64,000 bases of DNA from Candidatus Omnitrophota bacterium (GTDB lineage: Bacteria; Omnitrophota; Gorgyraeia; Tantalellales; Tantalellaceae). Both the position numbers and the translations under genes were made by a program. This document shows, one piece after another, positions 1 through 62,940 of the stretch; position 1 is the stretch's first letter; each line of letters begins with the position of its first letter. The stretch spans positions 758 to 64,757 of the forward strand of contig JBARQV010000010.1 of NCBI GenBank assembly GCA_049643885.1, written 5' to 3'. The notes under the pieces are model-generated. The model made no database searches. It was not told the origin of the DNA and worked only from the letters and a program-made list of their open reading frames with translations.

Positions 1-2
1 GC

Positions 3-98
3 GAGCAGGAAGTAAGGCATGCCGGAAAATGCCGCCTGGAAGGGAAAGAGTACATAGTCCAGGACGGCGACATCCTCTTCATCAAATTCAACGTATAA
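3..98 (+). CDS. ychF: Ribosome-binding ATPase YchF, C-terminal fragment (gene begins upstream of window)
   Basis: Frame-3 translation ...[19 protein letters not shown] matches the conserved YchF C-terminal (TGS-domain) end. Stop TAA at 96-98. Not in ORF track because it lacks a start in the window. Confidence 0.6.
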
Positions 99-143
99 TC
101 GCCCATCGTCGCTTGCATTATTTATTGCCTGGTCCATTCCTGC

Positions 144-180
144 CAGGGACGTCCGCTTTTCCCAGCGAGAAAATCGGACT
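144..180. repeat. 37-nt hairpin motif copy 1 (cagggacgtccgNttNNcccagcgagRaaatcggact)
   Basis: 33/37 identity to 62316-62352 in the same orientation. Internal inverted repeat gtccgNtt/aaNcggac around the loop cccagcgag. Lies 46 nt after the ychF stop. Confidence 0.5.
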
Positions 181-521
181 CTAAAATTTCCTCGCTCTCG
201 CCGGAAGTCAAGACACAGGCGAACCGTGCCCCCTCGGAAATTTAAAGCCCTGTACGGAACAGATCAGGCAATAAAACTCTCGATTCGCTTGTCTCATTTC
301 ATAAGTTGCATGGTTAAATGTTTGTTCTGTTTTCCCCGAGTAGATGTTTAACCTGTCAGGGTTACGGAAAGGTCCGGGGGTGTGTTCAGTGCGAGTTTCC
401 AAAAAAAAGTGATTTTAGGTCGCTTTTTTTGGACTGTCTGAGCACGGAATACACCCCCGGGCCTTTTCAGCATTCAGATAGATCAAACATCTAATGAACG
501 TTTAATAGGAACGGATAGGCA

Positions 522-558
522 ATAAAAAAGCCACCAGATAAGTCTGATGGGTTTTTTA
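522..558. terminator. Bidirectional intrinsic terminator between convergent ychF and tRNA-Glu
   Basis: Hairpin ccaccagataagtctgatgg (531-550) is preceded by an A-run (524-529) and followed by a T-run (552-557), so it can terminate on either strand. Confidence 0.4.
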
Positions 559-565
559 ATAAAGC

Positions 566-643
<78 letters not shown>

Positions 644-649
644 ACCGTA

Positions 650-669
650 TTTTGGTGCGCGAGGCGAGA
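650..669. repeat. 20-nt direct-repeat copy of the tRNA-Leu(GAG) 3' end
   Basis: ttttggtgcgcgaggcgaga is identical to 841-860 (last 17 nt of tRNA-Leu plus 3 nt of flank). No complete tRNA fold is present here. Confidence 0.7.
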
Positions 670-843
670 AAACCAGCTCCGAATCAAATGAGGAGCGCAG
701 GATCCTCGGCTCGAGCGGATGTTTATTGGGTAAAAAGACCAAGGGAATGTATTTCCTTGGGGGTTTTGCCCAATAAGCATAAAAAGATCAACAGATCTTT
801 TTACAAAAATTTATCTCAAATAGCAAGCGCCGCTATAAATTTT

Positions 844-930
844 TGGTGCGCGAGGCGAGATTTGAACTCGCACAGGATCGCTCCCGCCAGCCCCTCAAGC
901 TGGTGCGTCTGCCAGTTCCGCCACTCGCGC
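844..930 (-). tRNA. tRNA-Leu (anticodon GAG)
   Basis: 87-nt class II tRNA on the reverse strand. Acceptor gcgcgag/ctcgcgc, anticodon loop ttGAGgg, long variable arm, T-arm gcgag-ttcaaat-ctcgc, CCA end. Confidence 0.85.
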
Positions 931-991
931 GGGGTACTTCCAGTAAAAAGAGATTGTAATTCTCTTTTTACAAAAAATCTAGTAGATTTTT

Positions 992-1008
992 TGGCTGGGA
1001 TGCCTGGA
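992..1008. repeat. 17-nt copy of the tRNA-Gln 3' end
   Basis: tggctgggatgcctgga is identical to 3994-4010 (reverse strand of the tRNA-Gln 3' end including CCA). No tRNA fold. Confidence 0.65.
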
Positions 1009-1095
1009 TTATCAGCCATGCTTTCCCAAGTCCTTTATTTAACGCTAATTATACCATTTTTTTTAATATTTGGACAGTTTTGCCAGAATACATAC

Positions 1096-1623
1096 TTATT
1101 GGTCACCCGGGACAGCTGAGAGCATTAACATCGTCCAGCCACTGAATATCAGGTTTATCCCTACAAGCAGGCCGAGCATCCATGCCACGCTGCCGGGGTA
1201 CCCGGAGAAAATAATAGCGGCCAGTATAAGGGCCGCGATACCGCTGGCAAGCATCCAGCCCCAGTTCGACATCGGCCGGAGTTGTACTGCGACGGCGATC
1301 TTTATTACTCCTTCGAACATAAAGAGAATGGCTAAGAGCAGTGTCAGCGTAAGCACGCCCTCGAGCGGATACCGTAGGAACATGATACCGATCGCGAGGT
1401 AAAGTATCCCGATGAGAAGTCTCAGGATACATTTGCCGGAATTTAACGCGCGGAACGAATGGACGATCGTAACAATGCCGCTTAGTACAAGGATCCACCC
1501 GAAGAGAACCTCAACAGCGACAGAGGCAACTAACGGCACTGCTACAGCCGCCGCACCGAGAAGGATCAATATGATCCCCGCGACCAGGAACCATCCTTTA
1601 GTTTCTTGTATGATATCTGACAT
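1096..1623 (-). CDS. HdeD-family (DUF308) acid-resistance-type membrane protein
   Basis: About 175 aa with repeated hydrophobic segments with small-residue (G/A) motifs, 5-6 predicted TM helices. AGGAG RBS 8 nt upstream of the ATG for MSDIIQETKGW, so the ORF-track start at 1659 is probably an overcall. Confidence 0.55.
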   Translation of the reverse strand: MSDIIQETKGWFLVAGIILILLGAAAVAVPLVASVAVEVLFGWILVLSGIVTIVHSFRALNSGKCILRLLIGILYLAIGIMFLRYPLEGVLTLTLLLAILFMFEGVIKIAVAVQLRPMSNWGWMLASGIAALILAAIIFSGYPGSVAWMLGLLVGINLIFSGWTMLMLSAVPGDQ

Positions 1624-2075
1624 ATTAACATTTCTCCTTTTTGAATTATTGTACTGCAATATGGCGGATTATTAAAAGAAAAGACTCAACCCCTTATTGC
1701 ATAAAATTCAAATGTGGCTAACTTATGAAACCTGCCCTGGATCCTCTTTGGCCTGCATGTTTTCTTTATTCAGTTTACGCTGTTTTTTTTCTTCTTTTTT
1801 CTTTTTCTTTGCCAGTTCTTTCTGATGCTTTTGATATGAATAATTATCTCTTGCCAACATACCCTCCTTTTGTCTTGGGGGCCATCCCGCATGGGGGCAC
1901 CCTATAATTTGGATTATACTACTAGGGAATATACTGTCCGGGAAAAACAAAATGCTCTCTGTCAAGCAGGGGGCATTTAAATAAAGATCCTGAGGGGCCT
2001 ACGACAAAATTGGCTCCCCGTATTGGACAACTCTTGTGGACTGCTCGGAGTGAGAGACTAACAAAATCTCTTCTT

Positions 2076-2243
2076 TTAACGACCGCTGTCCTTACGCCTT
2101 GCGAAGCACTCCTTGCAGTATACTGGACGGTCCCCGCTGGGCTTGAAAGGAACTTCGCATTCTTTCTTACATTCTGAACAAGTCACTTTGTGCATCTCCC
2201 GCGGCCGCTTGTCAAATCCACCACCACCTCGCTGATATCCCAT
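2076..2243 (-). CDS. Small zinc-ribbon protein (CxxC-x17-CxxC), 55 aa
   Basis: Not in ORF track (under 60 aa). Reverse-strand ORF MGYQRGGGGFDKRPREMHKVTCSECKKECEVPFKPSGDRPVYCKECFARRKDSGR with AGGAGA RBS 5 nt upstream. Two CxxC pairs 17 residues apart, as in a widespread small zinc-ribbon family. Confidence 0.55.
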   Translation of the reverse strand: MGYQRGGGGFDKRPREMHKVTCSECKKECEVPFKPSGDRPVYCKECFARRKDSGR

Positions 2244-2324
2244 CTTGTCTCCTTTTTGTTTTTATTAACAATAATTATACACTAAAAAAGCCCCTTGCAA
2301 CTTATTTGCTAGGATTTAAAGCCA

Positions 2325-2344
2325 TGGCTGGGATGCCTGGACTC
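2325..2344. repeat. 20-nt copy of the tRNA-Gln 3' end
   Basis: tggctgggatgcctggactc is identical to 3994-4013. Flanking sequence diverges, so it is not a tRNA. Confidence 0.7.
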
Positions 2345-2373
2345 TCCCAGATTTAAGTTCAATTTTACCATTT

Positions 2374-2419
2374 CACCACCAAAATCACCACCAAAAACAC
2401 CACCAAAAACACCAAAAAC
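2374..2419. repeat. Short tandem repeat (CACCACCAAAAA-like, about 4 units)
   Basis: caccaccaaaatcaccaccaaaaacaccaccaaaaacaccaaaaac lies immediately 3' of the radical SAM gene. Confidence 0.6.
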
Positions 2420-2425
2420 TACTAT

Positions 2426-3877
2426 TTATTTGTTCTTTATGAATATACGTTTCAGGGAATCGCCGAGTCGGTTTTTTTTCAATTCTCGGGCGATTATATT
2501 TTTAAACAAACGAGGGCTCACTCCTAAAAATGAAATGACTTCACTAAACCCAAAAAATCTTATTACCAGAACTTTTTTCAACATTTTCAAAAGACCAAAT
2601 GGTGTATAAAAAGAAAATTTTATCTTTCTGCCTATTTTTTTTAAGGTAGCGTGGCTATAATTATCCGAATAAAGTTCGCCCCTCTCGGTAACATGGTAAC
2701 CGGGTGTTTCTTCCGCTATTTTTTTAAGAGGCGAGAATTTCTCTATTCTTAACTTCTGAAAAGTAATGGAGTCAAGGCTTATCTCCTTTGCGAATTTCGA
2801 TATATACAACATTTCTTCCTCGGTCTCGCCTATGTTGCCATAAATAAAGTAGCCATGGTAGTAGATGGGGTATTTTTTTAGCACAGCAAAGCATTTTCTT
2901 ATGGTGTCTGAGTCGAAACCCTTGTTAAGCTCAGCCAGTATACGATTGTGCGGAGATTCTATACCTATCAAGAGTATCTTGAATCCCGCCCGAACCATCT
3001 TGCTTAGAAGCTTAGGATGTTTGGCTATTTCGATACGGGTCTGTGCTATAAAACGTTTTTTTATTTTGCGTGCTATTATTAAATCGCAAATCTCTTCTGC
3101 CCTTTTTGCATTTGTGAAAAAGTTATCATCGCTAAAAAGTACGGTATTGGCGGTTATTTGTTCTATCTCTTCGATAACAGATTCAACGCTACGTGCCGCA
3201 TAGTATCTCTTTTGACCCAGCGGATTCAAGCTGAATGTGCAAAACTTGCACTCGTAAGGACATCCTCTCGCGCTCAAAACTGTATCAAACGTTAAATTTG
3301 TCACGTTGAGACCGTTTAATATTAAGCGATGTTTGTTCCGCCTTAAATTGCGATCGGGTGTTGCTATGTCGTTTACTTCCTGCAAAGATCTATTTTCATT
3401 ATGAATCACCTTGCTGTTTGCTCTATAAGAAATACCTAAAATATTTTCGAGCGGCAGCCCTTTTAGTATCTCTTTTGTCGTCTCTTCTCCCTCGCCTCTT
3501 ACAATAATGTCTATTTTTGGACAGGCCCGAAAGAGCTCCTCGCCCTGCTCTGTCGCCTTATATCCGCCTACGACTAAAGGCATATTATCCGGCATGCGGT
3601 TTAGCAGGTCACAGATTTCTTTGAATTGGCGATCCCACCCAATGCTAACGAATATAATATCTATTTCCCTGCGTATAAAATCCAGCAGCTTATCGGGATC
3701 GCAAAAATCTTTTTCAGACCTCAGGTCAAGAAGGGTTATTTTATCCACAAGACCCTTGGCGCTTGTCGCTACATACTCAAGGCCTGTAGGCGGGAAAAGC
3801 CCCCTCATGCTTGTTGTGTTTTTTTCGATATACGGATTTAGAAATAAGGCGTGTTTATGTTTCATCTTTAATAACAT
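2426..3877 (-). CDS. B12-binding domain radical SAM protein
   Basis: N-terminal cobalamin-binding-like domain, then a CxxxCxxC radical SAM motif (GCPYECKFCTF). The first few residues (MLLKMKHKH) may be an N-terminal overcall. Confidence 0.75.
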   Translation of the reverse strand: MLLKMKHKHALFLNPYIEKNTTSMRGLFPPTGLEYVATSAKGLVDKITLLDLRSEKDFCDPDKLLDFIRREIDIIFVSIGWDRQFKEICDLLNRMPDNMPLVVGGYKATEQGEELFRACPKIDIIVRGEGEETTKEILKGLPLENILGISYRANSKVIHNENRSLQEVNDIATPDRNLRRNKHRLILNGLNVTNLTFDTVLSARGCPYECKFCTFSLNPLGQKRYYAARSVESVIEEIEQITANTVLFSDDNFFTNAKRAEEICDLIIARKIKKRFIAQTRIEIAKHPKLLSKMVRAGFKILLIGIESPHNRILAELNKGFDSDTIRKCFAVLKKYPIYYHGYFIYGNIGETEEEMLYISKFAKEISLDSITFQKLRIEKFSPLKKIAEETPGYHVTERGELYSDNYSHATLKKIGRKIKFSFYTPFGLLKMLKKVLVIRFFGFSEVISFLGVSPRLFKNIIARELKKNRLGDSLKRIFIKNK

Positions 3878-3993
3878 TTAGGGTTCTGACTTCAAAACTG
3901 ATCCATTGTATTCTTAAAAGTTGCTCTTTGCAAGCTAGCTTATCCTTGCAATCCGAAGGACACCCAGGCAAGAAGGATGGGATTAAACAAGAC

Positions 3994-4067
3994 TGGCTGG
4001 GATGCCTGGACTCGAACCAGGAACAAATGTTCCAGAGACATTCGTGTTACCATTACACCACATCCCA
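3994..4067 (-). tRNA. tRNA-Gln (anticodon CUG)
   Basis: 74-nt reverse-strand tRNA tgggatg...catcccagcca. U1-A72 acceptor typical of tRNA-Gln, anticodon loop ctCTGga, T-arm cctgg-ttcgagt-ccagg. Immediately upstream of glnS. Confidence 0.85.
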
Positions 4068-4092
4068 GCGCTATATTGTGGACAATATTATA

Positions 4093-5769
4093 TTATTTAT
4101 CCTTCTTGCTTTCAATCTTTTTCCAAGTATCGCGTAAAGTCACCGTGCGGTTAAAAACCGGTTTTTTGTCAGAGGAGTCGGCCGGGTCGACAAAGAAATA
4201 ACCCTGCCTTTCGAACTGGTACCTGCTTCCCGACGAGGCGTCTTTCAGGCTCGGCTCGAGCTTACAGGATTTTAAAACTTCCAGCGAATTCGGGTTCAGA
4301 TTGGACCTATAATCCTTGCCTTCTTCCACTTCCTCGGGATCCCGTTTTGTAAATAGATACTCATACAGGCGAACCTCTGCCTCTGTCGCATGCTTGGCTG
4401 ATACCCAATGCAACGTGCCTTTAACCTTACGTCCGTCCGGGGCATCCCCTCCCCGTGTTTCAGGATCGTGCGTGCAATGAAGTTCCAGTATCTCTCCATT
4501 TGCATCCTTGATAACCTCATCGCATTTAATGAAATACGCATACCGCAAGCGAACTTCTTTTCCCGGGGCCAGACGGAAGAATTTCTTCGGCGGGTCTTCC
4601 CTGAAATCATCGCGCTCGATGTAGAGTTCGCGTGAAAACGGAACTTTTCTGGTCCCCATGTCCGGGGCTTCCGGATTATTGATCGCGTCCAGCTCTTCTT
4701 CGTCTTCCGGATAGTTAGTGATCACTACTTTTAAGGGACGTAAAACCGCCATTGCGCGGAGGGCTGTCTTATTTAATTCTTCGCGGATACTGTTCTCAAG
4801 CTGGACAACATCTACGATGCTATTCATCCTCGCTACCCCGATCTTCTCACAAAAATCCCTGATCGATCCGGGCGTATACCCCCGTCTTCTTAGGCCCGAT
4901 ATTGTAGGCATCCGGGGGTCATCCCAACCGTTCACATGCCCGCCTTCTACAAGCTCCAAAAGTTTTCTTTTGCTCAAAATAGTATTACTAAGATTGAGGC
5001 GCGCAAACTCCATCTGCTGGGGATGGTAAGCCCCTAGCTCATCCAGGAACCAGTCATATAACTGGCGGTGAGTCTCGAATTCTAAAGTGCAAATGGAGTG
5101 GGTGATCTTTTCTATCGAATCTTCGAGACCGTGGGCCCAATCATACATGGGGTATATGCACCACTTGCCGCCTGTGCGATGATGTTCGGCGTGCAATATG
5201 CGGTACATAACAGGATCACGCATTAAAAGATTCGGGTGTGTCATGTCGATCTTCGCGCGTAATGTTTTCGAGCCGTCAGGAAACTCCCCTTTCTGCATGC
5301 GTTCGAACAGGTCCAGATTCTCTTCGGCAGACCGGTCCCTGTAGGGGCTGTTTTCCCCCGGCTCGGTAATGGTGCCTCGGTATTCCCTGACCTCTTCAAG
5401 CGTCTGATCACAGACGAATGCTTTCCCTTTCTTGATGAGCAGGACCGCGTATTCGTACATCTCGTCAAAATAGTCAGAAGCGTAAAACAGTCTGTCCTGC
5501 CAGTCCGCGCCCAGCCACTTGACATCCTCGATAATAGAGTCGACGTATTCCTGTTCTTCTTTGCAGGGGTTGGTATCGTCGAACCTAAGATTGAATTTGC
5601 CGTTATAGTCCCTGGCTATGCCGTGATTAAGGCATATCGCCTTGGCATGGCCCACGTGCAGGTACCCGTTGGGCTCGGGAGGAAAACGGGTATGGACCCT
5701 GCCTTCGTTCTTCCCCGCCGTCAGGTCCGCGTCAATTATGTCCCTTATGAAATTCGAAGTCTTCCTCAT
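4093..5769 (-). CDS. glnS: Glutaminyl-tRNA synthetase
   Basis: [11 protein letters not shown]...[23 protein letters not shown]...FDDTNP gives very strong class I GlnRS N-terminal identity. 558 aa. Confidence 0.93.
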
Positions 5770-5851: not shown

Positions 5852-7135
5852 TCATCCGGCAGCCCTCTTCATTCTTTCCAGCACTTTTTCTTTTCCCAAA
5901 ACTTCCATCATCTCGAACAAGCCCGCGCCTTGCGATTTTCCGCTTATGGCTACGCGGGTCGGATGGATTATCTGGGCGGCTTTCAGGTTTCTTTCCTCGG
6001 CGATCTCACGGCAAATGCTCTCGATTTTCTCATGTGAGAAGTCATCAAGCGCCTCGAGCCTGCCGGCGAATATCCCGACGTTCTCCTTGTTGCCCTGAGC
6101 GCTGAGATGCTTATTTTTCGCTTTTTCATCTACCACGAAATCGTCCTTGAAAAAATAATCTGTAAGCTCCGAAAATTCGTTCAAGGTCTTCATCCTGACC
6201 TTGTAAAGCCCGATGACCTTTAAGATATGATCATCCTGTATCCCTGACATGTCTAGCCCGGCGGAAACAAGCCGGTCCTTGATAAGCGGGAGTAGCTTGT
6301 CGGTATTGGATGCCATTATATGCTCGCCATTCAGCCACCGGAGTTTCTGAATGTCGAACATCGCCTGAACATCCTTCAGATCTTCCAGTTTGAATATCTT
6401 TACCGCTTCTCCCAATGAGATCACTTCCCGGTCTTCTCCCGGAGACCATCCCAGGAGCAAAAGATAATTGGCCAGGGCCTCCGGCAGAAATCCTTCATCC
6501 TTGTATTCCTCTACGGAGACTCCCCCATGCCTTTTTGAAAGTTTCGCCCCGTCAGTTCCCATCATGAGCGGTATGTGCGCGAACCGCGGCGGTTCGAGCC
6601 CCATGGCTTCGTAGAAAAGTATCTGTTTGGGTGTATTGGAGATATGGTCATCTCCCCTGATTATGTGGGTGATGTTGAGATAAGCGTCATCGACCACGCA
6701 ACAGAAATTATAAGCGGGGGAACCGTCCGACTTGATCATCACTTGGTCTTTTATCTCATCGGTATTGAAAGTTATCCTGCCGTGGATAATGTCATCGACC
6801 TCGATCGTCCTGCCCTTCTCTACCTTGAATATGATCGCGTCGCCTTCGCGGTAAGCCTTACCTCCCCCGAGGATCTTTTCCGCTTTCTCGCGGTAGACAT
6901 CGAATCTTTTGCTCTGGTATATAGGTTCTTCGTCCCAATCGAGCCCCATCCATTTCAAGTCTTCAAGGATCTCTTTAAGATACTTTTCGTCTGACCTCTC
7001 GCGGTCCGTATCCTCTATCCTCAGCAGGAATTTTCCTCCGGTGCGCCGGGCGTAAAGCCAGTTAAAAAGCGCCGTCCTGGCGCTTCCCAGGTGAAGGTAA
7101 CCCGTGGGGCTCGGGGCAAAACGGACGATCACCAT
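5852..7135 (-). CDS. gltX: Glutamyl-tRNA synthetase
   Basis: PSPTGYLHLGSARTALFNWL HIGH-type motif and KLSKRHG KMSKS motif, with a C-terminal anticodon-binding region. 427 aa. Confidence 0.88.
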   Translation of the reverse strand: MVIVRFAPSPTGYLHLGSARTALFNWLYARRTGGKFLLRIEDTDRERSDEKYLKEILEDLKWMGLDWDEEPIYQSKRFDVYREKAEKILGGGKAYREGDAIIFKVEKGRTIEVDDIIHGRITFNTDEIKDQVMIKSDGSPAYNFCCVVDDAYLNITHIIRGDDHISNTPKQILFYEAMGLEPPRFAHIPLMMGTDGAKLSKRHGGVSVEEYKDEGFLPEALANYLLLLGWSPGEDREVISLGEAVKIFKLEDLKDVQAMFDIQKLRWLNGEHIMASNTDKLLPLIKDRLVSAGLDMSGIQDDHILKVIGLYKVRMKTLNEFSELTDYFFKDDFVVDEKAKNKHLSAQGNKENVGIFAGRLEALDDFSHEKIESICREIAEERNLKAAQIIHPTRVAISGKSQGAGLFEMMEVLGKEKVLERMKRAAG

Positions 7136-7692
7136 CAGGCGCTACCTTTCTTTCCCAGCTCTATCCCTCTTTCCAGGGCTTTTATATTTATCGACACGAG
7201 TTTCTTTTGTCCCATGGCCAGTTTCTCAAAGATGCCGGACAAGAGTTCCTTATCGAACAATGTCTTTCCCGCGAGATATGTTCCCATGGCGATCATGTTG
7301 GCGACTTTCACGTTCCCGAGCTTTATAGCCTCATCGGTAAAAGGGACCTTGACCACTTTAATGTCTTTTCTGTTGACTTCACGGTTCACCATGGAAGAAT
7401 TCAATATAAGGGTCCCGTTCTTTTTGATACTTTTTTCAAATTTATCCAAGGAAAGTTCGTTCATGATAAATCCCGTATCCGCCAAAAAAATGATCGGGTT
7501 GGCTATCATCTCAGAACTGACCCTGACCATGCAATGCGCCGTTCCTCCGCGCACTTCGGCACCATACGAAGGCATCCAGGTCACATGGTACCCCTTATCC
7601 ATGCCGGCGTTGGCAATGACCTTGCCGAGAATCATTATCCCTTGTCCGCCGAACCCTGCACAAATTATATCTTCACTTATTTTCTTATCCAC
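7135..7692 (-). CDS. 2-oxoacid:ferredoxin oxidoreductase, gamma subunit
   Basis: GFGGQGIMILGKVIANAGM signature of the POR/KOR gamma family. Last gene of the delta-alpha-beta-gamma operon. Confidence 0.85.
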   Translation of the reverse strand: MDKKISEDIICAGFGGQGIMILGKVIANAGMDKGYHVTWMPSYGAEVRGGTAHCMVRVSSEMIANPIIFLADTGFIMNELSLDKFEKSIKKNGTLILNSSMVNREVNRKDIKVVKVPFTDEAIKLGNVKVANMIAMGTYLAGKTLFDKELLSGIFEKLAMGQKKLVSINIKALERGIELGKKGSA

Positions 7693-8422
7693 TGTCCTTT
7701 ATCACTCCCAACGGGTATTCTTTTATAACTTCCTCCCCTATGCGTTCCATGGCCTTGAGCGGGGTCATCCCCCAGTAAGTAGGGCAGGGGGAGAGGACTT
7801 CGACCATGGAAAACCCTTTTCCATCAAGCTGGGTCTGGAAAGACTTTTTAATAGCTCTTTTAGTATTCAATATTTCCTTGACTGAATGAACAGAGACCCT
7901 TTCCAGATATCTCGCGCCGGGAAGAACCGCCATCATCTCCGTGATCTTCATGGGAAACCCTTCTTCTATGGCCCTGCGAGTAAATGGCGTCGTTGCTGTT
8001 TTTTGTCCCAGAAGCGTGGTCGGGGCCATCTGCCCACCTGTCATTCCGTAGACACCGTTGTTTACGAAAATAACCGAGATATTTTCACCTCGGTTACCGG
8101 CATGAATGATCTCAGCCGTCCCTATCGCCGCCAGGTCCCCATCCCCCTGGTAGGTGAAGACCAGCTTGTCGGGCAAGACGCGTTTTATGCCGGTAGCTAC
8201 CGCGGGAGTGCGTCCGTGGGCGGCCTCCGTGACATCGAAATCCCAGTAATCATATGCCAGGACCGCGCACCCTACCGGAGCAACAGCGATAGTTTTTTCA
8301 CGGACCCCGAGTTCGTCAATAACCTCGCAGACAAGACGGTGTATGAGGCCGTGCCCGCAACCGGGGCAATAATGTGTGGCCGCGTCTTTCATCGATTCCG
8401 GTTTTATAAACTGTTTACCCAT
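7685..8422 (-). CDS. 2-oxoacid:ferredoxin oxidoreductase, beta subunit (TPP-binding)
   Basis: CPGCGHG motif and GDG...NN TPP-binding motif (YQGDGDLAAIG...NNGVYGMTGGQ). Confidence 0.88.
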   Translation of the reverse strand: MGKQFIKPESMKDAATHYCPGCGHGLIHRLVCEVIDELGVREKTIAVAPVGCAVLAYDYWDFDVTEAAHGRTPAVATGIKRVLPDKLVFTYQGDGDLAAIGTAEIIHAGNRGENISVIFVNNGVYGMTGGQMAPTTLLGQKTATTPFTRRAIEEGFPMKITEMMAVLPGARYLERVSVHSVKEILNTKRAIKKSFQTQLDGKGFSMVEVLSPCPTYWGMTPLKAMERIGEEVIKEYPLGVIKDSG

Positions 8423-11631: not shown

Positions 11632-11874
11632 TTATTCCTCTGTTTTTGCCTTCTTTTCCTGGAAAGCTTTTTTCTTGAATTTGCCTTTTTCGTCCCTGGA
11701 AAGCAGCTCGATCTTTTCCTTGGCCTTGCTTAGTTTTTCCTGGCAGATCCGGACCAGCTTTACGCCTTCTTCATACTTTTTAAGAGAATCCTCCAGCGAA
11801 AGGTCGCCGGCTTCAAGATCTTCAACTGTTTTCTCCAGCTTTTCAAGCGCCTTCTCGAAACTTATATCTTTCAT
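11632..11874 (-). CDS. xseB: Exodeoxyribonuclease VII small subunit
   Basis: 80 aa coiled-coil protein FEKALEKLEKTVEDLEAGDLSLEDSLKKYEEGVKLVRICQEKL, immediately downstream of xseA. Confidence 0.85.
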   Translation of the reverse strand: MKDISFEKALEKLEKTVEDLEAGDLSLEDSLKKYEEGVKLVRICQEKLSKAKEKIELLSRDEKGKFKKKAFQEKKAKTEE

Positions 11875-13127
11875 CCTTTTCCTCCCGCTCTTTCTTTCTC
11901 GATGCGCTTCACCGTGCTAAAAACCTCTCCCCGGGCAAGCCTGGTCCGCAGTGCGTCTCCGGCTTTCAGTCCAGCCGCGGTCTTTACGGTTTTTTCACCC
12001 TTAAAAGTAATACTGTAGCCCCGTTCTAAAACGGCAAGGGGACTCAACATCTCGAGCTTTCCCGCAGTGCCGGCAAATTCCTTGCTCTTGATCTCCACGC
12101 AGTGAGCGATGTTCGCCTGGACCGATTTGGCCAGGTCGTCTAGCTGCTGCTGGAGTTGTAGAAAAACGTTCATCGGGGCCCTGAGTACATAGCTCTCTTT
12201 AAGCCTCTTAAGATCCTTCTCCAGGATGTCTATCCTGGATCTTACTGCCGTCTTCATGCGAAGCGCGTAATCCATTATCCGGCCAGCAAGTTCTTCTTTT
12301 ACCGGTATCACCAGTTCCGCAGCGGCCGAAGGTGTTGGAGCCCTGAAATCCGCTGTAAAATCGGAGATCGTATAATCGACCTCGTGCCCCACTGCGCTTA
12401 TTACAGGTATCTCCGAAGCGAATATCGCCCGGGTGACTTTTTCCTCGTTGAACGGCCAGAGGTCTTCCAGACTGCCTCCTCCACGTCCCACGATAAGGAC
12501 ATCTATCGGATGTTCTTCGCTACCTGTCTCGGCAAGATAAGAATTATATTCATTAAATTCCTCTATAGCCTTGGCTATTTCGTGTTTGGCCTCTTCTCCC
12601 TGGACCTTGACCGGGCATATGGTTATTTCGACATTTGTGAAACGGCGCTTGGCCACCTTCAGGATATCCCTTATGGCCGCGCCCGTTGGGGACGTCACTA
12701 CCCCTATATGCACCGGCAGGTACGGCAGCGGTTTTTTATGCTCCGGGGCGAAAAGCCCTTCTTTGCGCAGTTTCTCTTTAAGTTGTTCGAAGGCAAGCTG
12801 CAGAGCGCCCTTGCCCTTGGGCTCCATCTTGCTCACGTAAAACTGGTATTGTCCGCGCTTGTCGTATACGCTTATCCGGCCGTAGCACAAGACATGCAAT
12901 CCGTCTTCCACGTCGAAAGCAAGGCGGGAACTGCTGTTCTTGAACATGACGCAGTTTATAAGACTGTTCTCGTCCTTGAGGCTGAAATACGCATGTCCCG
13001 AAGTATAAACCTTAAAATTTGATATCTCCCCTTCGACCCAAATTTCGGGGAAAGCATCTTCCAGCAAAAACCGGATATCTCTGGTAAGCTCGCTGACCGT
13101 GTAAATATGAGTTTCAGTTTTCTCCAT
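11871..13127 (-). CDS. xseA: Exodeoxyribonuclease VII large subunit
   Basis: OB-fold N-terminus (VSELTRDIRFLLEDAFPEIWVEGEISNFKVY) and catalytic domain. Start taken at ATG 13127 (MEKTETH) with AGGAAA RBS, because the ORF-track start at 13145 is a GTG. Confidence 0.88.
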   Translation of the reverse strand: MEKTETHIYTVSELTRDIRFLLEDAFPEIWVEGEISNFKVYTSGHAYFSLKDENSLINCVMFKNSSSRLAFDVEDGLHVLCYGRISVYDKRGQYQFYVSKMEPKGKGALQLAFEQLKEKLRKEGLFAPEHKKPLPYLPVHIGVVTSPTGAAIRDILKVAKRRFTNVEITICPVKVQGEEAKHEIAKAIEEFNEYNSYLAETGSEEHPIDVLIVGRGGGSLEDLWPFNEEKVTRAIFASEIPVISAVGHEVDYTISDFTADFRAPTPSAAAELVIPVKEELAGRIMDYALRMKTAVRSRIDILEKDLKRLKESYVLRAPMNVFLQLQQQLDDLAKSVQANIAHCVEIKSKEFAGTAGKLEMLSPLAVLERGYSITFKGEKTVKTAAGLKAGDALRTRLARGEVFSTVKRIEKERAGGKG

Positions 13128-13128
13128 G

Positions 13129-13905
13129 TTACTTTTCCTGAACACGTTTTATGCTTACAGCTTTCCCTGTTGAATCTTCGACTTCAACTATCACGCCGTG
13201 CATTTCCACGCCCCCGTCGGCCATCTCAAAACGAGTGGGCATTTGGCTCACAAAACGCAGTATGATCTGTTCTTTTTTTCTACCGATCACCGAATCATAC
13301 GGCCCTGTCATCCCGCAATCGGTGATGTACGCCGTTCCTTTAGGCAGGATCTTCTCGTCCGCTGTCTGAATATGAGTATGGGTCCCCAGGACCGCACTGG
13401 CCAGCCCGTCAAGATACCATCCCATCGAAACTTTCTCGCTGGTCGCTTCCGCGTGCATGTCGACGATTACTATCGGCGTTTCCTTACGCACTTTGTCTAT
13501 CTCTTTCTTGACGCGGACAAAAGGGCAGTCCACCGCTTCCATGAAGACTCGCCCCAGAAGGTTGATAACACCGACCTTCTTGCCGCCGCCGGCATTCACG
13601 ACGGTCGCCCCTCTGCCGATCGTCCCTTCCGGATAATTGGCAGGCCTTATGAGCCTGCTGCTGGTCTCGAGATAATCGTATATTTCTTTTCTTTTCCAGA
13701 TATGGTCGCCAGCGGTAAGAACATTGATCCCGTTCCGGAAAAGCTCGTCCGCGATCTGGGGTGTGACACCGCTGCCCCCGGCAGCGTTCTCGGCGTTGGC
13801 GATCACGAAATCGATCTTTTTTTCTTCCCTGTAGTCAGGCAGTCTGTCCTCGACGATCCGGCGTCCCGGTTTCCCGACAATATCACCCAGAAATAATATT
13901 CTCAT
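13129..13905 (-). CDS. ymdB: YmdB-family metallophosphoesterase (2',3'-cyclic-nucleotide phosphodiesterase)
   Basis: MRILFLGDIVGKPGR...GDH...GTHTH metallophosphatase motifs. Directly downstream of rny as in Bacillus. The ORF-track start at 13953 reads into a hairpin repeat, so start is taken at ATG 13905. Confidence 0.85.
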   Translation of the reverse strand: MRILFLGDIVGKPGRRIVEDRLPDYREEKKIDFVIANAENAAGGSGVTPQIADELFRNGINVLTAGDHIWKRKEIYDYLETSSRLIRPANYPEGTIGRGATVVNAGGGKKVGVINLLGRVFMEAVDCPFVRVKKEIDKVRKETPIVIVDMHAEATSEKVSMGWYLDGLASAVLGTHTHIQTADEKILPKGTAYITDCGMTGPYDSVIGRKKEQIILRFVSQMPTRFEMADGGVEMHGVIVEVEDSTGKAVSIKRVQEK

Positions 13906-16996: not shown

Positions 16997-18000
16997 ATCC
17001 TCATCTCCTTGATCTTCTCTTTAGGCAAGGGCGGTACTGCCAGTGTGCTCTTGTCCTTATCCTCGACCCAGTATTCAACCGGGACTTTTTCTTCGCCCTT
17101 GAATTTTGAATGGCTCACAACAAGGGAAGCGGCGGTCTTTACATGGTTTTCGCTCTTTTTGCCCCGGAGTAGGGCATAAGGCCCGGGCTTATCCTTGAGA
17201 CGCAGGATCATGTCCCTGTTCTCTTTAAGGCCGGCGATACCGTTATTGTCCTTTTCGTCCCTCCCTACCACGACCTTGGTCTCCCGGTCCATGCGGAAAT
17301 GCCTTCCGTATTTCAAAAGGTCGATATTCTTAATAGCAAGGCTATCGGTATCTATAAGATCTTTCACCTTTTTGGCGAATATCGGGTCCGCCAAAAGACA
17401 TCCCCCTGCGGGGGGAAAGAATTTCTTTATCCCGTACTTCCTGGCCAGTTCGAACTGTCTTTTTCTTGACCGTCCTTCTATGTCCAGAAGTCTCTCCCTG
17501 TCCACGACGCCTTCTTTTTCGGGGATAGTCTCGTCCAGGAGCTTGGCTGAAAGCGGCCGGAGCAGATACCCGTCAAGAGATGAGCTTTTCCTGATGATGT
17601 TAAGGGCGTCCCTCCTCTGGGACATCGGACGCTCGCCAAGCACTTCCCCGGTAACGACAAAATCGGCACCCTCTTCTTTCATCACCTCCCAGGCCTTCCG
17701 CAACATGAATATCTTACAGTCGATACACGGGTTCATGTTGGAACCATACCCGTGTTTAGGCGATTTCAGGATATTAAGGAATTCTTTTGATATATCTACG
17801 ATCTTTACCGGGATACCTGCTTCGTTCGAAGCGATGTGGACATTATGGGAAAAATCACGCACACTGGTGGAAGCAACGGACATGACGAAGGCCACGCCCT
17901 GCACTTCTATCCCCTGCTCCTGGACCAATTTGGCAGCCAGCAGGCTGTCCAGCCCTCCTGAAATAAGAGCTACCGCTTTCCTTTTAACTTTTCCAGCCAT
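16993..18000 (-). CDS. ThiI-like PP-loop ATPase (adenine nucleotide alpha-hydrolase superfamily, probable tRNA thiolation enzyme) without a THUMP domain
   Basis: SGGLDS PP-loop at residues 14-19, CIDCK motif and a TGEVLGERPMSQ...LLRPL segment resembling the ThiI catalytic domain. Confidence 0.55.
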   Translation of the reverse strand: MAGKVKRKAVALISGGLDSLLAAKLVQEQGIEVQGVAFVMSVASTSVRDFSHNVHIASNEAGIPVKIVDISKEFLNILKSPKHGYGSNMNPCIDCKIFMLRKAWEVMKEEGADFVVTGEVLGERPMSQRRDALNIIRKSSSLDGYLLRPLSAKLLDETIPEKEGVVDRERLLDIEGRSRKRQFELARKYGIKKFFPPAGGCLLADPIFAKKVKDLIDTDSLAIKNIDLLKYGRHFRMDRETKVVVGRDEKDNNGIAGLKENRDMILRLKDKPGPYALLRGKKSENHVKTAASLVVSHSKFKGEEKVPVEYWVEDKDKSTLAVPPLPKEKIKEMRI

Positions 18001-19277
18001 TCCTTTATTTTCTTTTCGTACCCCATCTCTGTAGGCATGTAATAAGTCTTCTTTCTCCGCATATAATCCTGTTTGACGAAGTGATCTTCGAAAGAATGGG
18101 CATATTTATAATCCTGGCCGTGTCCGAGTTTTTCGGCCCCGGGATAATTGGCGTCCTTAAGATCATCCGGCACTTCCTGCGTCCTCTGGGTCTCAATATC
18201 TTTTATGGCCTTGTGGATCGCCATGTACGAGGCGTTGCTTTTCGGCGCGCAGGCAACGTAAATAGTGGCCTGCGCCAGTGGTATCTTCGCTTCCGGTAAA
18301 CCGACAAAATCAGCTACCTGCATGGCCGCGTTCGCCACCACCAGGGCCTGTGGATCGGCGTTGCCTACATCTTCTGCGGCACATATCACCAGCCGCCTGG
18401 CAATGAACCTCGGGTCTTCTCCCGCCACGACCATCTTAGCCAGCCAGTAAATCGCAGCGTCCGGATCGGATCCCCTCATGCTTTTGATGTACGCGCTTGC
18501 CGCATCGTAATGGGCGTCACCGTCGCGGTCGTAAACAATCGCTTTTTTCTGTATGGACTCTTCCGCCTCCTTCAGGCCGATCTTAACCACCCCTTTCTTA
18601 TCCGCGGTACTGGTAAGAAAGGCGATCTCCAGAGCGCCTAAAGCTTTCCTGGCATCACCGTCGGATATGGCGGCCAGGTGATCAAGAGCCTCCTTGTCCA
18701 CGTTGATATCCTTTCCCTTCAGACCCCGCTCCTTGTCTTCAAGCGCTTTCTGTAAAATGGCAAGAACATCTTTCTTTTCAAGGGCTTTGAATTCAAATAT
18801 CTGACTCCTTGAAAGCAAGGCGGAATTCACCGTAAAGAAAGGGTTTTCCGTGGTCGTGCCCATAAGTATCACATTCCCTTCCTCCACATCCGGCATAAGC
18901 ACGTCCTGCTGCGCCTTGTTAAACCTGTGGATCTCGTCCAGCAAAAGTATGGTTTTCTGCCCGTTAAGGGCCCTCTGCTTCTTCGCGGCGTCTATTATCC
19001 GGCGAATCTCTTTTACGTTGCTGGAAACCGCGTTCTGTCTTACGAACCGGGCCCCGGTCTTGTTTGAAATGATCATTGCCAAGGCGGTCTTCCCCGTACC
19101 CGGAGGCCCGTAAAATATTACCGAGCTAATGCGGTCAGCCTCTATCGCGCGCCGCAGGAGCTTGCCCTCGCCGACGATGTGTTCCTGCCCGTAGAAGTCC
19201 TCAAGCCGATGGGGACACATCCTCACCGGTAACGGCCCCGCCTTATCCTTCTTATTTTCCCTTTCAAAAAGGTCCAT
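17970..19277 (-). CDS. rarA: Replication-associated recombination protein A (AAA+ ATPase)
   Basis: GPPGTGKTALAMII Walker A, LLLDEIHRFNKAQQD Walker B/sensor, MgsA/RarA C-terminal domain. Confidence 0.9.
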   Translation of the reverse strand: MDLFERENKKDKAGPLPVRMCPHRLEDFYGQEHIVGEGKLLRRAIEADRISSVIFYGPPGTGKTALAMIISNKTGARFVRQNAVSSNVKEIRRIIDAAKKQRALNGQKTILLLDEIHRFNKAQQDVLMPDVEEGNVILMGTTTENPFFTVNSALLSRSQIFEFKALEKKDVLAILQKALEDKERGLKGKDINVDKEALDHLAAISDGDARKALGALEIAFLTSTADKKGVVKIGLKEAEESIQKKAIVYDRDGDAHYDAASAYIKSMRGSDPDAAIYWLAKMVVAGEDPRFIARRLVICAAEDVGNADPQALVVANAAMQVADFVGLPEAKIPLAQATIYVACAPKSNASYMAIHKAIKDIETQRTQEVPDDLKDANYPGAEKLGHGQDYKYAHSFEDHFVKQDYMRRKKTYYMPTEMGYEKKIKEWLEKLKGKR

Positions 19278-35442: not shown

Positions 35443-37887
35443 TTATTCTTCTTCGCCTTCTTCTGCCTTGGCGACCACGCTGGCCACTGAAGTAAGGCTG
35501 TCCGAAGGTTTCAGGTTAATGATCTTTACCCCTTGAGTAGATCTGCCTATAGTATTTATCCCTTTCACCGCGACCCTGACAACCATGCCCTGTTTGGAGA
35601 TAAGCATGATCTCGCCTTCATCCTTTACGGACATGACGCCGATCACGGGCCCGTTCTTGTTGACCACTTTCAAATTGATTACCCCGCTCCCGCCCCGGGA
35701 TTGCATGCGGTACTCGCTGAATTGGGTCCTCTTGCCGTACCCTCGCTCGGTAGCGGTAAGAAGGGTCGCGTCGGGGGAGGTCTTCACCATCCCTACCACG
35801 GAGTCTTTCTTTTTTAGGCTTATGCCTTTGACTCCCTGGGCGCTGCGTCCCATGGACCTGATGTTGGTTTCCTTGAACCGTATAGCCTTCCCGCTTGCCG
35901 TGGCCAGGCAGATCTCATCATTGCCGTCGGAAAGAAGCGCGCCTTCAAGATGGTCCCCTTTGCCCAGCGTTATGGCGATGATGCCGCCCCTCCGGGGATT
36001 GCTGAAAGCGTTAAGCGGCGTCTTTTTTATTTTCCCCTGGGTGGTGGCCATCACCACAAAACGCCCTTCCGCAAATTCGCGCACCGGCACTACAGCGGTG
36101 ATCTTCTCGCCCTCAGCGACCCCTATAAGATTTATTATCGGCCGGCCTTTTGTCCTCTTCCCGGCCTGCGGGATCTCGTGGACCTTGAGCCAGTACAGCT
36201 TTCCTGCATTGGTGAAGATCAGCATGTAGTCATGGGTGGACGCGACGAAAAGGTGCTCTATGAAGTCTTCCTCTTTCGTCTCGGCCCCGGTAACGCCTTT
36301 GCCGCCACGGCGCTGCTTTTTGTAAGCGCTGACCGGAAACCTTTTAATATACCCGGCGTGGCTGACAGTTATCACCATGTCTTCCTCCGCTATCAGGTCT
36401 TCGATGTCTATCTCTTCCGCAGCCTTGGTGATCTCTGTCCTGCGCGGGTCATTGAATTTCTCTTTAAGTTCCAGGGATTCTGTTTTGATGATTTCCGTCA
36501 CTTTCTTTTCGCTGGCCAAAATCCCCTTCAGCGCTTCTATGACTTTGAGCAGTTCCAGGTATTCTTTCTGGATCTTCTCCGTCTCAAGGCTGGTCAGTTG
36601 CTGCAGCCTCATCGCCAGTATGGCCAGGGTCTGGGCTTCGGAAAGTTTGAATTTTTTCATGAGGGCGATCTTCGCCGCTTCGGGGTCTTTAGAATTTTTG
36701 ATGACTTTTATGACTTCATCCAGGTTCTTGATGGCGATCTTTAAGCCCTCGAGTATATGGGCCCTTTCTTCGGCCCGCGCCAGATCATGCCTGGTCCTTT
36801 TGATGATGATATCTTTGCGGTGTTTTATAAAATGTTCCAGCGCTTCTTTCAGGCTGAGTACTCTGGGCTGGCCGCCGACCAGCGCCAGCATGATCACGCC
36901 GAACGTTTCCTTCATCTGAGTACGCTTGTACAGCTGGTTCATGAGGATCTCTGTGTTATAGCCCCGGCGGACGTCTATCACGATACGCATGCCGTCCCTG
37001 TCGGACTCATCCCTGATATCCACTACACCTTCCACTTTCTTGTTTCTGACGAGGTCGGCGATGGAAGTTATCAGCTTGGTCTTGTTAACCTGGTAAGGGA
37101 TCTCCGTGACCACTACGCTCTCCCTGCCCTGTCTTTTTTGTTCCACATGCGCCTTGGCGTGGAGGATCAGGCTGCCCCGCCCGGTCTTGTACGCTTTAAG
37201 TATCGGCTCTTTGCCGCAGATAAGCGCCCCCGTCGGGAAATCCGGCCCTTTTACGATCTTCGCCAGGTCCTCGACCTCGCAAGCAGGGTTGTCGATCAAA
37301 TAACAGACGGCATCTACGACTTCGCCCAGGTTATGCGGAGGAATGTTCGTCGCCATGCCTACGGCTATACCGCTTGACCCATTCAAAAGAAGGTTGGGAA
37401 GAACGGAGGGTAAAACTTTCGGTTCTTGCAGGCTTCCGTCAAAATTCGGCGCGAACTGGACTGTGCCTTTGTCGATGTCCTGCATCATCGCATCGGATAT
37501 TCTATGCATTCTTGCTTCTGTATACCGCATGGCCGCCGCCGGATCGCCGTCAACCGATCCAAAGTTCCCTTGCCCGTTGATAAGCGGGTATCTTAAAGAA
37601 AAATCCTGGACCATGCGGACCAGGGAGTCGTAGACAGCCGCGTCCCCATGAGGGTGATATTTACCTAGGACTTCCCCGACTATCCTGGCGCTTTTTTTGT
37701 AAGGCTTGTTATACGTCAAACCCATGTCCTTCATCGCGTAAAGAATACGGCGATGAACGGGTTTCAGGCCGTCCCTTACATCCGGGAGCGCGCGCCCGAC
37801 AATTACGCTCATAGCGTAATTGATATAGGAATCTTTCATCTCCTCTTCTATGTAGACCGGGATGATCTTTTCATTTCTCGTATACAT
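35443..37887 (-). CDS. gyrA: DNA gyrase subunit A
   Basis: 814 aa with N-terminal [31 protein letters not shown] motifs, active-site Tyr region ([11 protein letters not shown]) and C-terminal beta-pinwheel repeats. Confidence 0.95.
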
Positions 37888-37900
37888 TGTCTCTCCTTAA

Positions 37901-40444
<2,544 letters not shown>

Positions 40445-40451
40445 CTATTTT

Positions 40452-40790
40452 TTACTCTTCACTTAAAGAACCGATCCTGAATCTTATGTCCTTGGCTTTT
40501 TTCCGCCCGGTATAGTGGGCGTTGAATTTTTCCAGGATCTTTTTCCTCTCTAAAGTAAGTTTATACAACCATGAAGAATTTTCAACTATTACAATAAGGG
40601 TCCCGTTTCTGTAATTACCCAGGCGCATGCGGATCCTCAGGTCCCCGCTGACCGCAGCTTCCCAGGCAGTCATGACCGCGCCGGCCCTTCGCACTTTCCC
40701 GTCCTTCCACTTACGCAGAAGGTCGCCTACGATCCCCTCAAGGTGCTTAGTTTCTCTTCTTTTTCCGCCGGCAGCGTTCATCAAAGTCAC
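40452..40790 (-). CDS. DUF721-domain protein (DciA-like), in the dnaN-gyrB neighbourhood
   Basis: 112-aa basic protein located between dnaN and gyrB, where DUF721/DciA genes typically occur. The WLYKLTLERKKILEKFNAHYTG hydrophobic-core pattern is consistent with this family. Confidence 0.5.
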   Translation of the reverse strand: MTLMNAAGGKRRETKHLEGIVGDLLRKWKDGKVRRAGAVMTAWEAAVSGDLRIRMRLGNYRNGTLIVIVENSSWLYKLTLERKKILEKFNAHYTGRKKAKDIRFRIGSLSEE

Positions 40791-41890: not shown

Positions 41891-42112
41891 CTCGTCCTCC
41901 TAGAATACTTTAATCTAGTTTTAAAAAAATAGCAGTAAACGTAGTATATAGGTATCTGTGGATATGTTCATAACCCCCAAAACCCATGTAGCTAAAGAAA
42001 AAACAACAATCCCCTCTTGTTGATAACCACCACAAAAAATGTGGAGAACCTGTTTACTTATCCACAAGTTATCCACAAGGGGGGATAACAAAGAACAGCT
42101 CGGGGCAACTTT
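41891..42112. promoter_or_regulatory. Candidate oriC segment (dnaA-dnaN intergenic DnaA-box cluster)
   Basis: Two perfect tandem TTATCCACA boxes (42058-42066 and 42069-42077). Near-boxes TGTGGATAT (41957-41965) and TGTGGAGAA (42040-42048). AT-rich tracts. Window-wide gene strand switch centred on dnaA. Confidence 0.6.
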
Positions 42113-62899: not shown

Positions 62900-62936
62900 G
62901 TTCGAGCCCCGTCCGCCCCGCCATTCTGCTTTACCC
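62900..62936. repeat. Left arm of 37-bp inverted repeat: inverted copy of the tRNA-Asp 3' end plus 13 nt of flank
   Basis: gttcgagccccgtccgccccgccattctgctttaccc is the reverse complement of 63273-63309 with one mismatch. Confidence 0.75.
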
Positions 62937-62940
62937 TATT

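Follow-up and report, generated by a model that had tools for sequence, protein, structure and literature searches.

The window analysed in this study is a 64-kb stretch of DNA from a Candidatus Omnitrophota metagenome-assembled genome, whose same-species contigs include GCA_049644745.1. The locus of interest lies directly behind gltX, glnS, and tRNA-Gln. Between tRNA-Gln and a tRNA-Leu/tRNA-Glu pair there are a B12-binding radical SAM gene, a short zinc-ribbon gene (zf), a lysine-rich open reading frame (ORF), and a DUF308/HdeD-like gene, with partial copies of the tRNA-Gln 3' end behind the radical SAM gene and behind the DUF308/HdeD-like gene. The tRNA genes were called by ARAGORN and Rfam, and protein families were assigned by Pfam and NCBIfam (Table 1). 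An earlier note, made from the sequence alone, had proposed that the repeats bound decayed tandem integrations. The results suggested that the array probably arose by tandem site-specific insertions of integrase-less cassettes at the tRNA-Gln 3' end, through a recombinase acting in trans.

The last 17 nt of tRNA-Gln, TGGCTGGGATGCCTGGA, occurred exactly three times in the 64 kb (992–1008, 2325–2341, and 3994–4010), all in one orientation. The expected number of matches in dinucleotide shuffles was 0.00, even when two mismatches were allowed. The copy at 2325 reached 20 nt, and its spacing from the tRNA-Gln end was 1669 nt. The sequence TTTTGGTGCGCGAGGCGAGA, composed of the last 17 nt of tRNA-Leu(GAG) and AAA, was found at 650–669 and 841–860, with an expected count of 0.02. 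Every copy, termed the core below, spanned the CCA, the discriminator base, the 3' strands of the acceptor stem and T-stem, and 1–4 nt of the T-loop. Both tRNA-Gln and tRNA-Leu were intact, and the insertion point lay exactly at the tRNA-Gln end. The repeats listed in the earlier note (20 and 17 nt of tRNA-Gln; 17 nt plus 3 of tRNA-Leu) were confirmed in every detail. Its gene content also stood: 2345–3993 contained only the radical SAM gene, and 1009–2324 contained the HdeD-like gene, the lysine-rich ORF, and the 55-aa zinc-ribbon gene.

Table 1. Features at and around the tRNA-Gln array (positions in the window)
Feature	Position	Strand	Remarks
ychF-to-tRNA-Glu gap	108–565		460 nt, gene-free
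Terminator-like hairpin	531–550		after tRNA-Glu; minus strand
tRNA-Glu(CTC)	566–643	minus	ARAGORN, Rfam; distal neighbour of the array
tRNA-Leu 3'-end copy	650–669	minus	17 nt + AAA; 6 nt upstream of tRNA-Glu
Gene-less unit behind tRNA-Leu	670–840	minus	171 nt; type 3 arm at ~670–735
tRNA-Leu(GAG), intact	844–930	minus	ARAGORN, Rfam
Core copy 3	992–1008	minus	17 nt of the tRNA-Gln 3' end; closes cassette B
Type 2 arm	1009–1088	minus	distal end of cassette B
Cassette B	1009–2324	minus	1316 nt; three genes and type 2 arm
DUF308/HdeD-like gene	1096–1623	minus	Pfam, NCBIfam
Lysine-rich ORF	1723–1860	minus	45 aa
zf_Tbcl_2/TIGR04272 protein gene (zf)	2076–2243	minus	55 aa; Pfam, NCBIfam
Core copy 2	2325–2344	minus	20 nt of the tRNA-Gln 3' end; read as displaced original tRNA end
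Type 1 arm	2345–2424	minus	distal end of cassette A
Cassette A	2345–3993	minus	1649 nt; radical SAM unit and type 1 arm
B12-binding radical SAM gene	2426–3877	minus	483 aa; Pfam PF02310 and PF04055
tRNA-Gln(CTG), intact	3994–4067	minus	ARAGORN; Rfam tRNA, 65.6 bits
Core copy 1	3994–4013	minus	last 20 nt of tRNA-Gln; proposed acceptor site for insertions
glnS	4093–5769	minus
gltX	5852–7135	minus

The origin of cassette A was examined by comparison with related loci, which are given L numbers here. The relatives were read as ~20-kb pieces reached via the protein database, and this genome was read over 64 kb. In L092, L093, L094, and L095, zf, the small ORF, and DUF308 followed directly after tRNA-Gln, and no radical SAM gene was present there. 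Window 2344..1742 aligned with L092 11788..12415 (87%), starting from the last 20 nt of the L092 tRNA-Gln. The DNA beyond the 2325 copy matched the DNA behind tRNA-Gln in L092/L094 base for base, the zf promoter included. Therefore, 2345–3993 and one repeat copy (1669 bp) were inserted at the tRNA end. Judged by this alignment, cassette A is a proven insertion, and 2325–2344 is read as the displaced original tRNA-Gln end. The precise empty site bears out the earlier reading of the radical SAM block as an insertion. Together with the exact repeats, it also supports the view that att-type insertion scars are stacked in tandem at tRNA 3' ends here. Cassette A is the newest insertion of the array.

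The composition of cassette A is foreign to the host. In the comparison of GC and codon usage with flanking genes that the earlier note had suggested, the radical SAM gene had a GC of 0.39 and a GC3 of 0.42, versus 0.50 and ~0.59 in the neighbouring genes. The gene family is large in Omnitrophota, with 88–70% identity, and its members occupy unrelated loci without a tRNA. The copies in the window (2426–3877), L098 (8001–9440), L101 (1458–2897), and L339 (5209–6660) had a GC of ~0.38–0.40 in different hosts and loci. Their third-position identity was 74–82%, versus only 34% for the DEAD helicase genes beside two of them, which indicates that the radical SAM gene spreads horizontally. It can be regarded as a gene spreading by itself; its protein was below every NCBIfam equivalog cut-off, so that no function was assigned by this means. 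A promoter scan placed a promoter-like site of the gene at 3905–3933.

Window 3991..2425 matched L098 at 88.7% without gaps, from 2 nt past the tRNA end through the stop codon. Since the homology begins 2 nt after the tRNA end, a lost integrase could not have fitted on that side. The final 80 nt of the insert (2345–2424) were not homologous to the DNA following the gene in L098, L101, or L339. Cassette A was rejected as a fixed mobile unit, as the radical SAM homologues at L098–L102 and L339 had neither type 1 arm nor tRNA.

Cassette B was found at the identical place in L092/L094 and was absent there from L086, L088, L091, L096, and L174. The nucleotide identity between the window and L092 was 86–87% over cassette B, including intergenic DNA, and 68–74% over the flanking 12 kb. 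Third-position identity was 85% for zf, 86% for the lysine-rich ORF, and 81% for DUF308; for the housekeeping genes glnS, gltX, and dxs it was 44%, 42%, and 42%. The amino acid identity of the lysine-rich ORF in relatives was 79%. In the GltX+GlnS tree, the window grouped with L086/L088, which have no cassette B at the site, and not with L092/L094, and the distribution of cassette B on this tree was patchy. The excess of identity and the tree position indicate separate acquisition or recent exchange of cassette B.

On these comparisons, cassette B is best read as horizontally exchanged cargo that is older than cassette A. The earlier suggestion that the zinc-ribbon gene was horizontally acquired agrees with third-position identities of 81–86%, versus 42–44% in the housekeeping genes. 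The earlier note had also named conserved synteny as a sign of ancient rather than insertional origin. Block B was indeed syntenic in some relatives, but the synonymous-site identity shows recent exchange, not ancient descent. The GC of zf and DUF308 was 0.52, which is host-like. The arm closing cassette B was reduced to its first ~27 nt in L092/L094, where a terminator followed and the core was lost. Window 1108–1642, containing DUF308 alone, matched L343 8984–9516 with 93% nucleotide and 91% third-position identity. L343 belongs to an Omnitrophota species that co-occurs in the same sample series, and the locus is unrelated. The homology ran from the ribosome-binding site almost to the stop codon, with sharp limits at the ORF edges, and this lone DUF308 ruled out cassette B as a fixed unit.

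The ~80 nt ahead of each distal core, in tRNA sense, fell into three families, termed arms. The type 1 arm consisted of 2–4 tandem copies of GGTGGTGAnnnn followed by TTGAACTTAAA, and was found in the window, L163, L177, L148, and L191. In the window, the 12-nt GGTGGTGAnnnn repeats lay at 2374–2414 (+ strand), and were followed by TTGAACTTAAA and then by a T-arm-like CTGG..CCAG. The type 2 arm consisted of two copies of CTGTCCAAA, a TATAAT-like box, and TAAAGGACTTGGGAAAGCnTrGCTGATAA. It was found in the window, L174/L202, L225, and at an internal site of L177, where the core was lost; the window copy carried CTGKCMAAA twice, a TGGTATAAT box, and TAAAGGACTTGGGAAAGCATGGCTGATAA adjoining the core. 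The type 3 arm consisted of GGATCCYGCGCYCC, a loop, and GGRGCTGGTTT. It adjoined the tRNA-Leu core in the window (670–735) and tRNA-Gln cores in L091 and L148. The short arm repeats were GGTGGTGA or CTGTCCAAA, and all three arm types kept a T-arm-like CTGG...CCAG dyad beside the core, as read from the alignment.

The similarity within each family was evaluated with the cores excluded. None of 2000 shuffles reached the score for type 1 (window against L163, L177, and L148), type 2 (window against L174, L225, and the internal site of L177), or type 3 (tRNA-Leu arm of the window against L091). For the tRNA-Leu arm of the window against the type 3 arm of L148, 120 of 2000 shuffles reached the score. 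The block common to the type 3 arms of the window and L091 was 36 nt long, with 28/36 positions matching. In L081 (~13366–13412), the 12-nt repeat CACCACCAAAAn (+ strand) had one copy more than in window 2374–2414 and L084, and assembly L082 ended within the 12-nt tandem repeat of the type 1 arm. The arms were rejected as tRNA pseudogenes, as Rfam (E ≤ 1) and ARAGORN saw only the three real tRNAs in 1–4200. Scans of IMG/VR for the core and both arm motifs gave only chance matches, located in coding sequence where checked; no arm was combined with a core, and the type 2 motif had no match at all.

Metagenomes were scanned with a core not followed by a T-loop as the query. Most of the at least 120 matches were discarded as chance matches in long ORFs of high-GC organisms, corresponding to a GWDAW-like peptide. 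Relevant among the matches listed were L148, L163, L174, L177, L191, L202, and L225, which were low-GC, intergenic, and Omnitrophota-like. The cargo linked to the arms was unrelated: radical SAM; zf/DUF308; ParD/PemK; Fic-HTH; AAA_14/DUF4143 ATPases; methyltransferase/GtrA/PMT_2; 23S_rRNA_IVP; or none. The units were 0.17–3.1 kb in size and contained single genes, a few genes, or none.

In L174/L202, a block of methyltransferase, GtrA, and PMT_2 genes ended in a type 2 arm with its core. These loci keep gltX-glnS-tRNA-Gln, which places their 3.1-kb block at the same address. In L148, a gene-less type 3 unit of 166 nt was followed by ParD/PemK, which ended in a type 1 arm with its core. In L091, tRNA-Gln was followed by a 23S_rRNA_IVP gene and a hypothetical gene, with a 16/17 core at their far end. 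The cargo of L177 was on the other strand. L177 and L225 had one downstream flank in common, with different arm types at the end, and L148 and L191 had a common flank after different arms. Such sharing of flanks suggests that units may have been reshuffled. Three conserved arm families, and integrase-less cassettes recurring at tRNA-Gln across Omnitrophota, are what is new here.

Several observations were made beside these cassettes. L091 contained two genes of the 23S_rRNA_IVP family (four-helix-bundle, bAvd-like), one between POR subunit genes and the other right after tRNA-Gln (7471–7863 and 11934–12278); this family appears to insert at odd places. In L096, a Y1_Tnp gene (IS200/IS605-type; 11832–12494) lay 18 nt after tRNA-Gln. 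In L191, two ORFs resembling IS21 IstA/IstB by eye (351–2607) lay right before the type 1 arm. By these positions, insertion sequences would occupy the same hotspot, putatively so in L191. In L098, a stretch just before the radical SAM unit (7739–7801) weakly matched the type 2 arm over its first two thirds (E 0.007). This locus was rich in small unrelated genes (RRM, HTH/Gp49, PIN, two ORF6N, and methyltransferase), and may represent a further array of cassette-like units, one that lacks a tRNA.

The unit behind tRNA-Leu was 171 nt long, or 191 bp with its tRNA-Leu end copy. No family-supported ORF was found in 670–840, which contained AT-rich hairpins and a strong hairpin at ~719–782. The earlier note had taken the tRNA-Leu repeat as an islet boundary. 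The repeat instead bounds this gene-less unit, whose arm matches tRNA-Gln-linked arms elsewhere. The type 3 arm on a tRNA-Leu core suggests either that a related recombinase recognises another target or that units were retargeted to the equivalent position of a second tRNA. In L091, tandem units broken by N runs were observed downstream of tRNA-Leu and tRNA-Glu (17300–18200). Its ~150-nt units opened with GCGCGAGGCGAGGATCCTGCGG, in which 12 nt of the tRNA-Leu 3' end, perfectly copied in inverted orientation, are joined to the type 3 motif, and closed with a truncated Leu core; ~62-nt tandem repeats followed tRNA-Glu. In the window, tRNA-Asp(GTC) (63286–63363, minus strand) was the third tRNA with a 3'-end copy, in the opposite geometry. 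Its last 24 nt and 14 nt of downstream flank were repeated in inverted orientation at 62900–62937 (38 nt, 97%). These repeat arms enclosed an 80-aa GIY-YIG nuclease gene (62941–63183, minus strand; Pfam PF01541), and a perfect 17-nt inverted repeat (62954–62970/63204–63220) was nested within them.

The genomic setting of the hotspot was compared with that of the relatives. The pairing of glnS and tRNA-Gln was kept in all of them. Those with 81–84% GlnS identity had the upstream order 5-FTHF ligase, RNase Y, ymdB, xseAB, dxs, POR, gltX, glnS, and tRNA-Gln, and diverged right after tRNA-Gln. A single tRNA-Gln was found at the locus in the relatives read, wherever the contig reached beyond the tRNA. 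A GlnS scan of genome contigs gave relatives of at most 74% identity from many phyla without synteny, which were of no use for the empty-site test. In the relatives, tRNA-Glu and tRNA-Leu were on the opposite strand in the order Glu-Leu, adjoining a 1093-aa gene and a glycosyltransferase gene that were both absent from the window. A simple inversion was rejected as the source of this difference in strand and order, as it fails to give the order of the window.

Window 35443–43534 contained dnaA, dnaN, a DciA-like gene, gyrB, and gyrA; DciA was assigned by Pfam and the other four by ORF size and first residues only. As this cluster is 31–40 kb from the tRNA-Gln hotspot, the hotspot is near the likely replication origin. 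The gene-free gap at 108–565 contained two long imperfect inverted repeats, 121–148/248–275 and 341–392/442–493, the latter with arms of 52 nt and 75% complementarity. No Rfam match was found in this gap at E ≤ 1.

A recombinase was searched for in the window and the related loci. In agreement with the earlier statement that no integrase or excisionase is present, Pfam and NCBIfam found no recombinase domain in 650–4067. None was found among ten Pfam-scanned window ORFs outside the locus, most of which were unrecognisable by first residues; the remaining window ORFs were judged housekeeping by first residues or by the precomputed Pfam domains of a same-species contig. No recombinase was found in any bounded block, in partly assembled blocks as far as the contigs reached, or, for seven relatives, in the DNA up to ~10 kb from glnS. 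Neither the loci read nor IMG/VR yielded a relative that combines these arms with an integrase. Because all units lack a recombinase, the radical SAM homology starts after 2 nt, and gene-less units exist, an integrase acting here would have to come from elsewhere. Logan contig ends at the tRNA were rejected as evidence of excision. The break in these contigs, at their beginning or end, lies 31 nt into the tRNA 3' end, and is explained by a 31-mer common to co-occurring relatives, not by polymorphism.

The following mechanism is proposed. The DNA behind glnS-tRNA-Gln would be an insertion hotspot in this Omnitrophota lineage, which small cassettes enter by site-specific recombination at the tRNA-Gln 3' end. 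Each event would rebuild the tRNA and displace the previous 3' end outward, giving the order tRNA-Gln, cassette A (newest), core, cassette B (older), and core. All recombination-site DNA of a cassette would be located at its distal end, as an arm of ~80 nt and 17–20 nt of tRNA copy. The gene-less unit with the type 3 arm would result from the same process at tRNA-Leu. We infer that the enzyme is most likely a tyrosine-type integrase acting on the T-arm/acceptor site, probably in trans, being encoded at another place in the genome or brought in by a visiting element. Its putative binding sites are the tandem repeats of the arms, which have the usual form of arm-type sites.

Some points weigh against this mechanism. 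Only ~8 informative loci were present among the matches listed, and no recombinase was identified in the 64 kb of this genome or the ~20-kb pieces of relatives. No excised circle junction was found in contigs carrying the radical SAM protein, and no read of an empty site was found. The occurrence of DUF308 alone at another locus shows that the cassettes are not fixed travelling units, and the radical SAM gene was likewise found elsewhere without the type 1 arm; cargo and arm may have come together in separate steps. To the left of each core, the sequence was unlike a tRNA T-loop, and because of this difference the crossover point cannot be placed.

The strongest alternative is that the units are fossil islets, namely internally deleted integrase-bearing islands or prophages, with the arms as decaying attR remnants without present function. 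Repeats and an empty site are their classical footprint. Decay to integrase-less remnants keeping attL/attR has been documented (PMC5704250), degenerate remnants are known in tRNA islands (10.1101/2020.12.28.424599), and arms or cores were eroded in L092/L094 and at the internal site of L177. However, none of the ~8 bounded or partly bounded islets contained an integrase remnant. Under decay, a deletion would need to end precisely at the start of the radical SAM unit, 2 nt after the core. The cores were perfect, the arms were alignable across genomes with saturated synonymous sites and recurred with other cargo, and gene-less units of 166–171 nt were present at two different tRNAs. The earlier description of the islets as fossil and decayed is therefore unproven, and we consider it a serious but unlikely possibility.

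Homologous (Campbell-type) or homology-facilitated recombination could have occurred via a tRNA-Gln-like stretch on foreign DNA, without a dedicated recombinase. The last 30 nt of tRNA-Gln, identical across nearly all relatives read, would provide a common anchor, and radical SAM and DUF308 were exchanged singly between co-occurring species, with sharp limits at the ORF edges. However, the junctions were identical over only 17–20 nt, a short length for exchange by RecA. This route leaves unexplained why three arm families with tandem repeats are conserved and why the same arm is present on a tRNA-Leu core, and it is very improbable.

Functional tRNA-like RNA elements under selection were also considered, such as acceptor/T-arm minihelices that direct the processing of cassette transcripts by RNase P or the CCA enzyme, or small RNAs transcribed from a promoter of their own. 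The type 2 and type 3 arms contained an imperfect inverted copy of the core, and the predicted fold paired the arm with the tRNA 3' strand. A TGGTATAAT-like box was located toward the core in 4/4 type 2 copies, as judged by eye. However, the fold energies of the arms were no better than those of shuffles (z −1.6 to +1.1), and neither ARAGORN nor Rfam found a tRNA-like gene, even at E ≤ 1. Exact tRNA identity, an empty site, and a stacked order are the predictions of recombination, and there seems to be very little chance that the arms are such RNAs. Hairpin or attC-like folding of the arms was likewise rejected: pairing of arm and core was predicted, but the z-scores were not significant. Decayed duplicates from a former tandem array of tRNA-Gln or tRNA-Leu genes are scarcely credible: the arms have a patchy likeness to the tRNA body (e.g., GGTGGTGAAATGGTAAAAT and the D-arm region), but similarity drops sharply after 17–20 perfect nt, tRNA-Gln is single in the relatives read where the contig reaches beyond it, the arm families are common to Gln and Leu cores, covariance models do not see the arms as tRNA, and the empty site in L092/L094 largely refutes the idea.

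The proposed trans-acting insertion was compared with known systems. Tandem stacking, in which new elements displace older ones outward, and elements keeping attL/attR without an integrase have both been documented (10.1101/2020.12.28.424599; PMC5704250). Like the cis-mobilizable elements (CIMEs) related to ICESt1 of Streptococcus (PMC5704250), the cassettes have attL/attR derived from the target 3' end, have no integrase of their own, and form tandem stacks with newer insertions beside the intact target. CIMEs are decayed integrative and conjugative or integrative and mobilizable elements, usually beside an integrase-bearing partner, while neither a partner nor a decay product was seen here. 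Unlike CIMEs, the units here have single genes or none (0.17–3.1 kb) and site DNA at one end only, and the three arm families recur with unrelated cargo.

The tycheposons and tRNA islands of Prochlorococcus (10.1101/2020.12.28.424599) likewise occupy tRNA hotspots in bacteria that are uncultivated or streamlined and have small genomes. Partial tRNA copies between successive integrations and adaptive or defensive cargo are also common to both. The stacking order, with the newest unit beside the tRNA, is as described for tycheposon islands (10.1101/2020.12.28.424599). By definition, tycheposons encode a tyrosine or large serine recombinase of their own together with replication genes, and none of these was present in the units here.

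The cassettes also resemble integron cassettes, as units of single-gene size are stacked at a fixed acceptor with the site at the 3' end, the recombinase is located outside the cassette, and toxin-antitoxin cargo occurs. Unlike in integrons, no IntI is located beside the acceptor; glnS, gltX, and POR are upstream of tRNA-Gln in all relatives. The arms have neither attC structure nor a GTTRRRY core, the acceptor is a tRNA gene, and cargo has its own promoter-like sites (radical SAM and zf) and lies on either strand. Integrative mobile elements exploiting Xer (IMEX) are integrase-less elements that use the host XerCD at dif, occur in tandem, and are bounded by repeats of the host site. The units here are IMEX-like in being integrase-less and tandem, with a recombinase that would be encoded elsewhere, and the target is a tRNA 3' end, not dif. 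Going further, the locus could be an Omnitrophota cassette-capture platform, integron-like in working and different in build. In such a platform, tRNA-Gln would be the fixed acceptor, one-end arms of ~80 nt, in three classes and fused to a mimic of the tRNA 3' end, would be the sites, and a recombinase located elsewhere would insert, shuffle, and excise cassettes with one gene, a few, or none; the arm-core module could move alone and retarget to the structurally equivalent position of another tRNA, here tRNA-Leu. This extension is speculative, and we consider it doubtful.

Omnitrophota are abundant, uncultivated, small-celled bacteria, and unusually high gene exchange has been reported in them in a 2026 preprint (10.64898/2026.05.20.726742). 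The glnS-tRNA-Gln junction provides a concrete, repeatable address where single genes arrive. The three arm families and the tRNA core can serve as search signatures for any genome or read set. If there is no recombinase, the locus is a clean, well-dated case of tandem insertion at a tRNA. If a trans-acting recombinase exists, it would be a compact cassette system docking at a tRNA gene, which may aid the study of gene flow in streamlined genomes and the development of site-specific integration tools.

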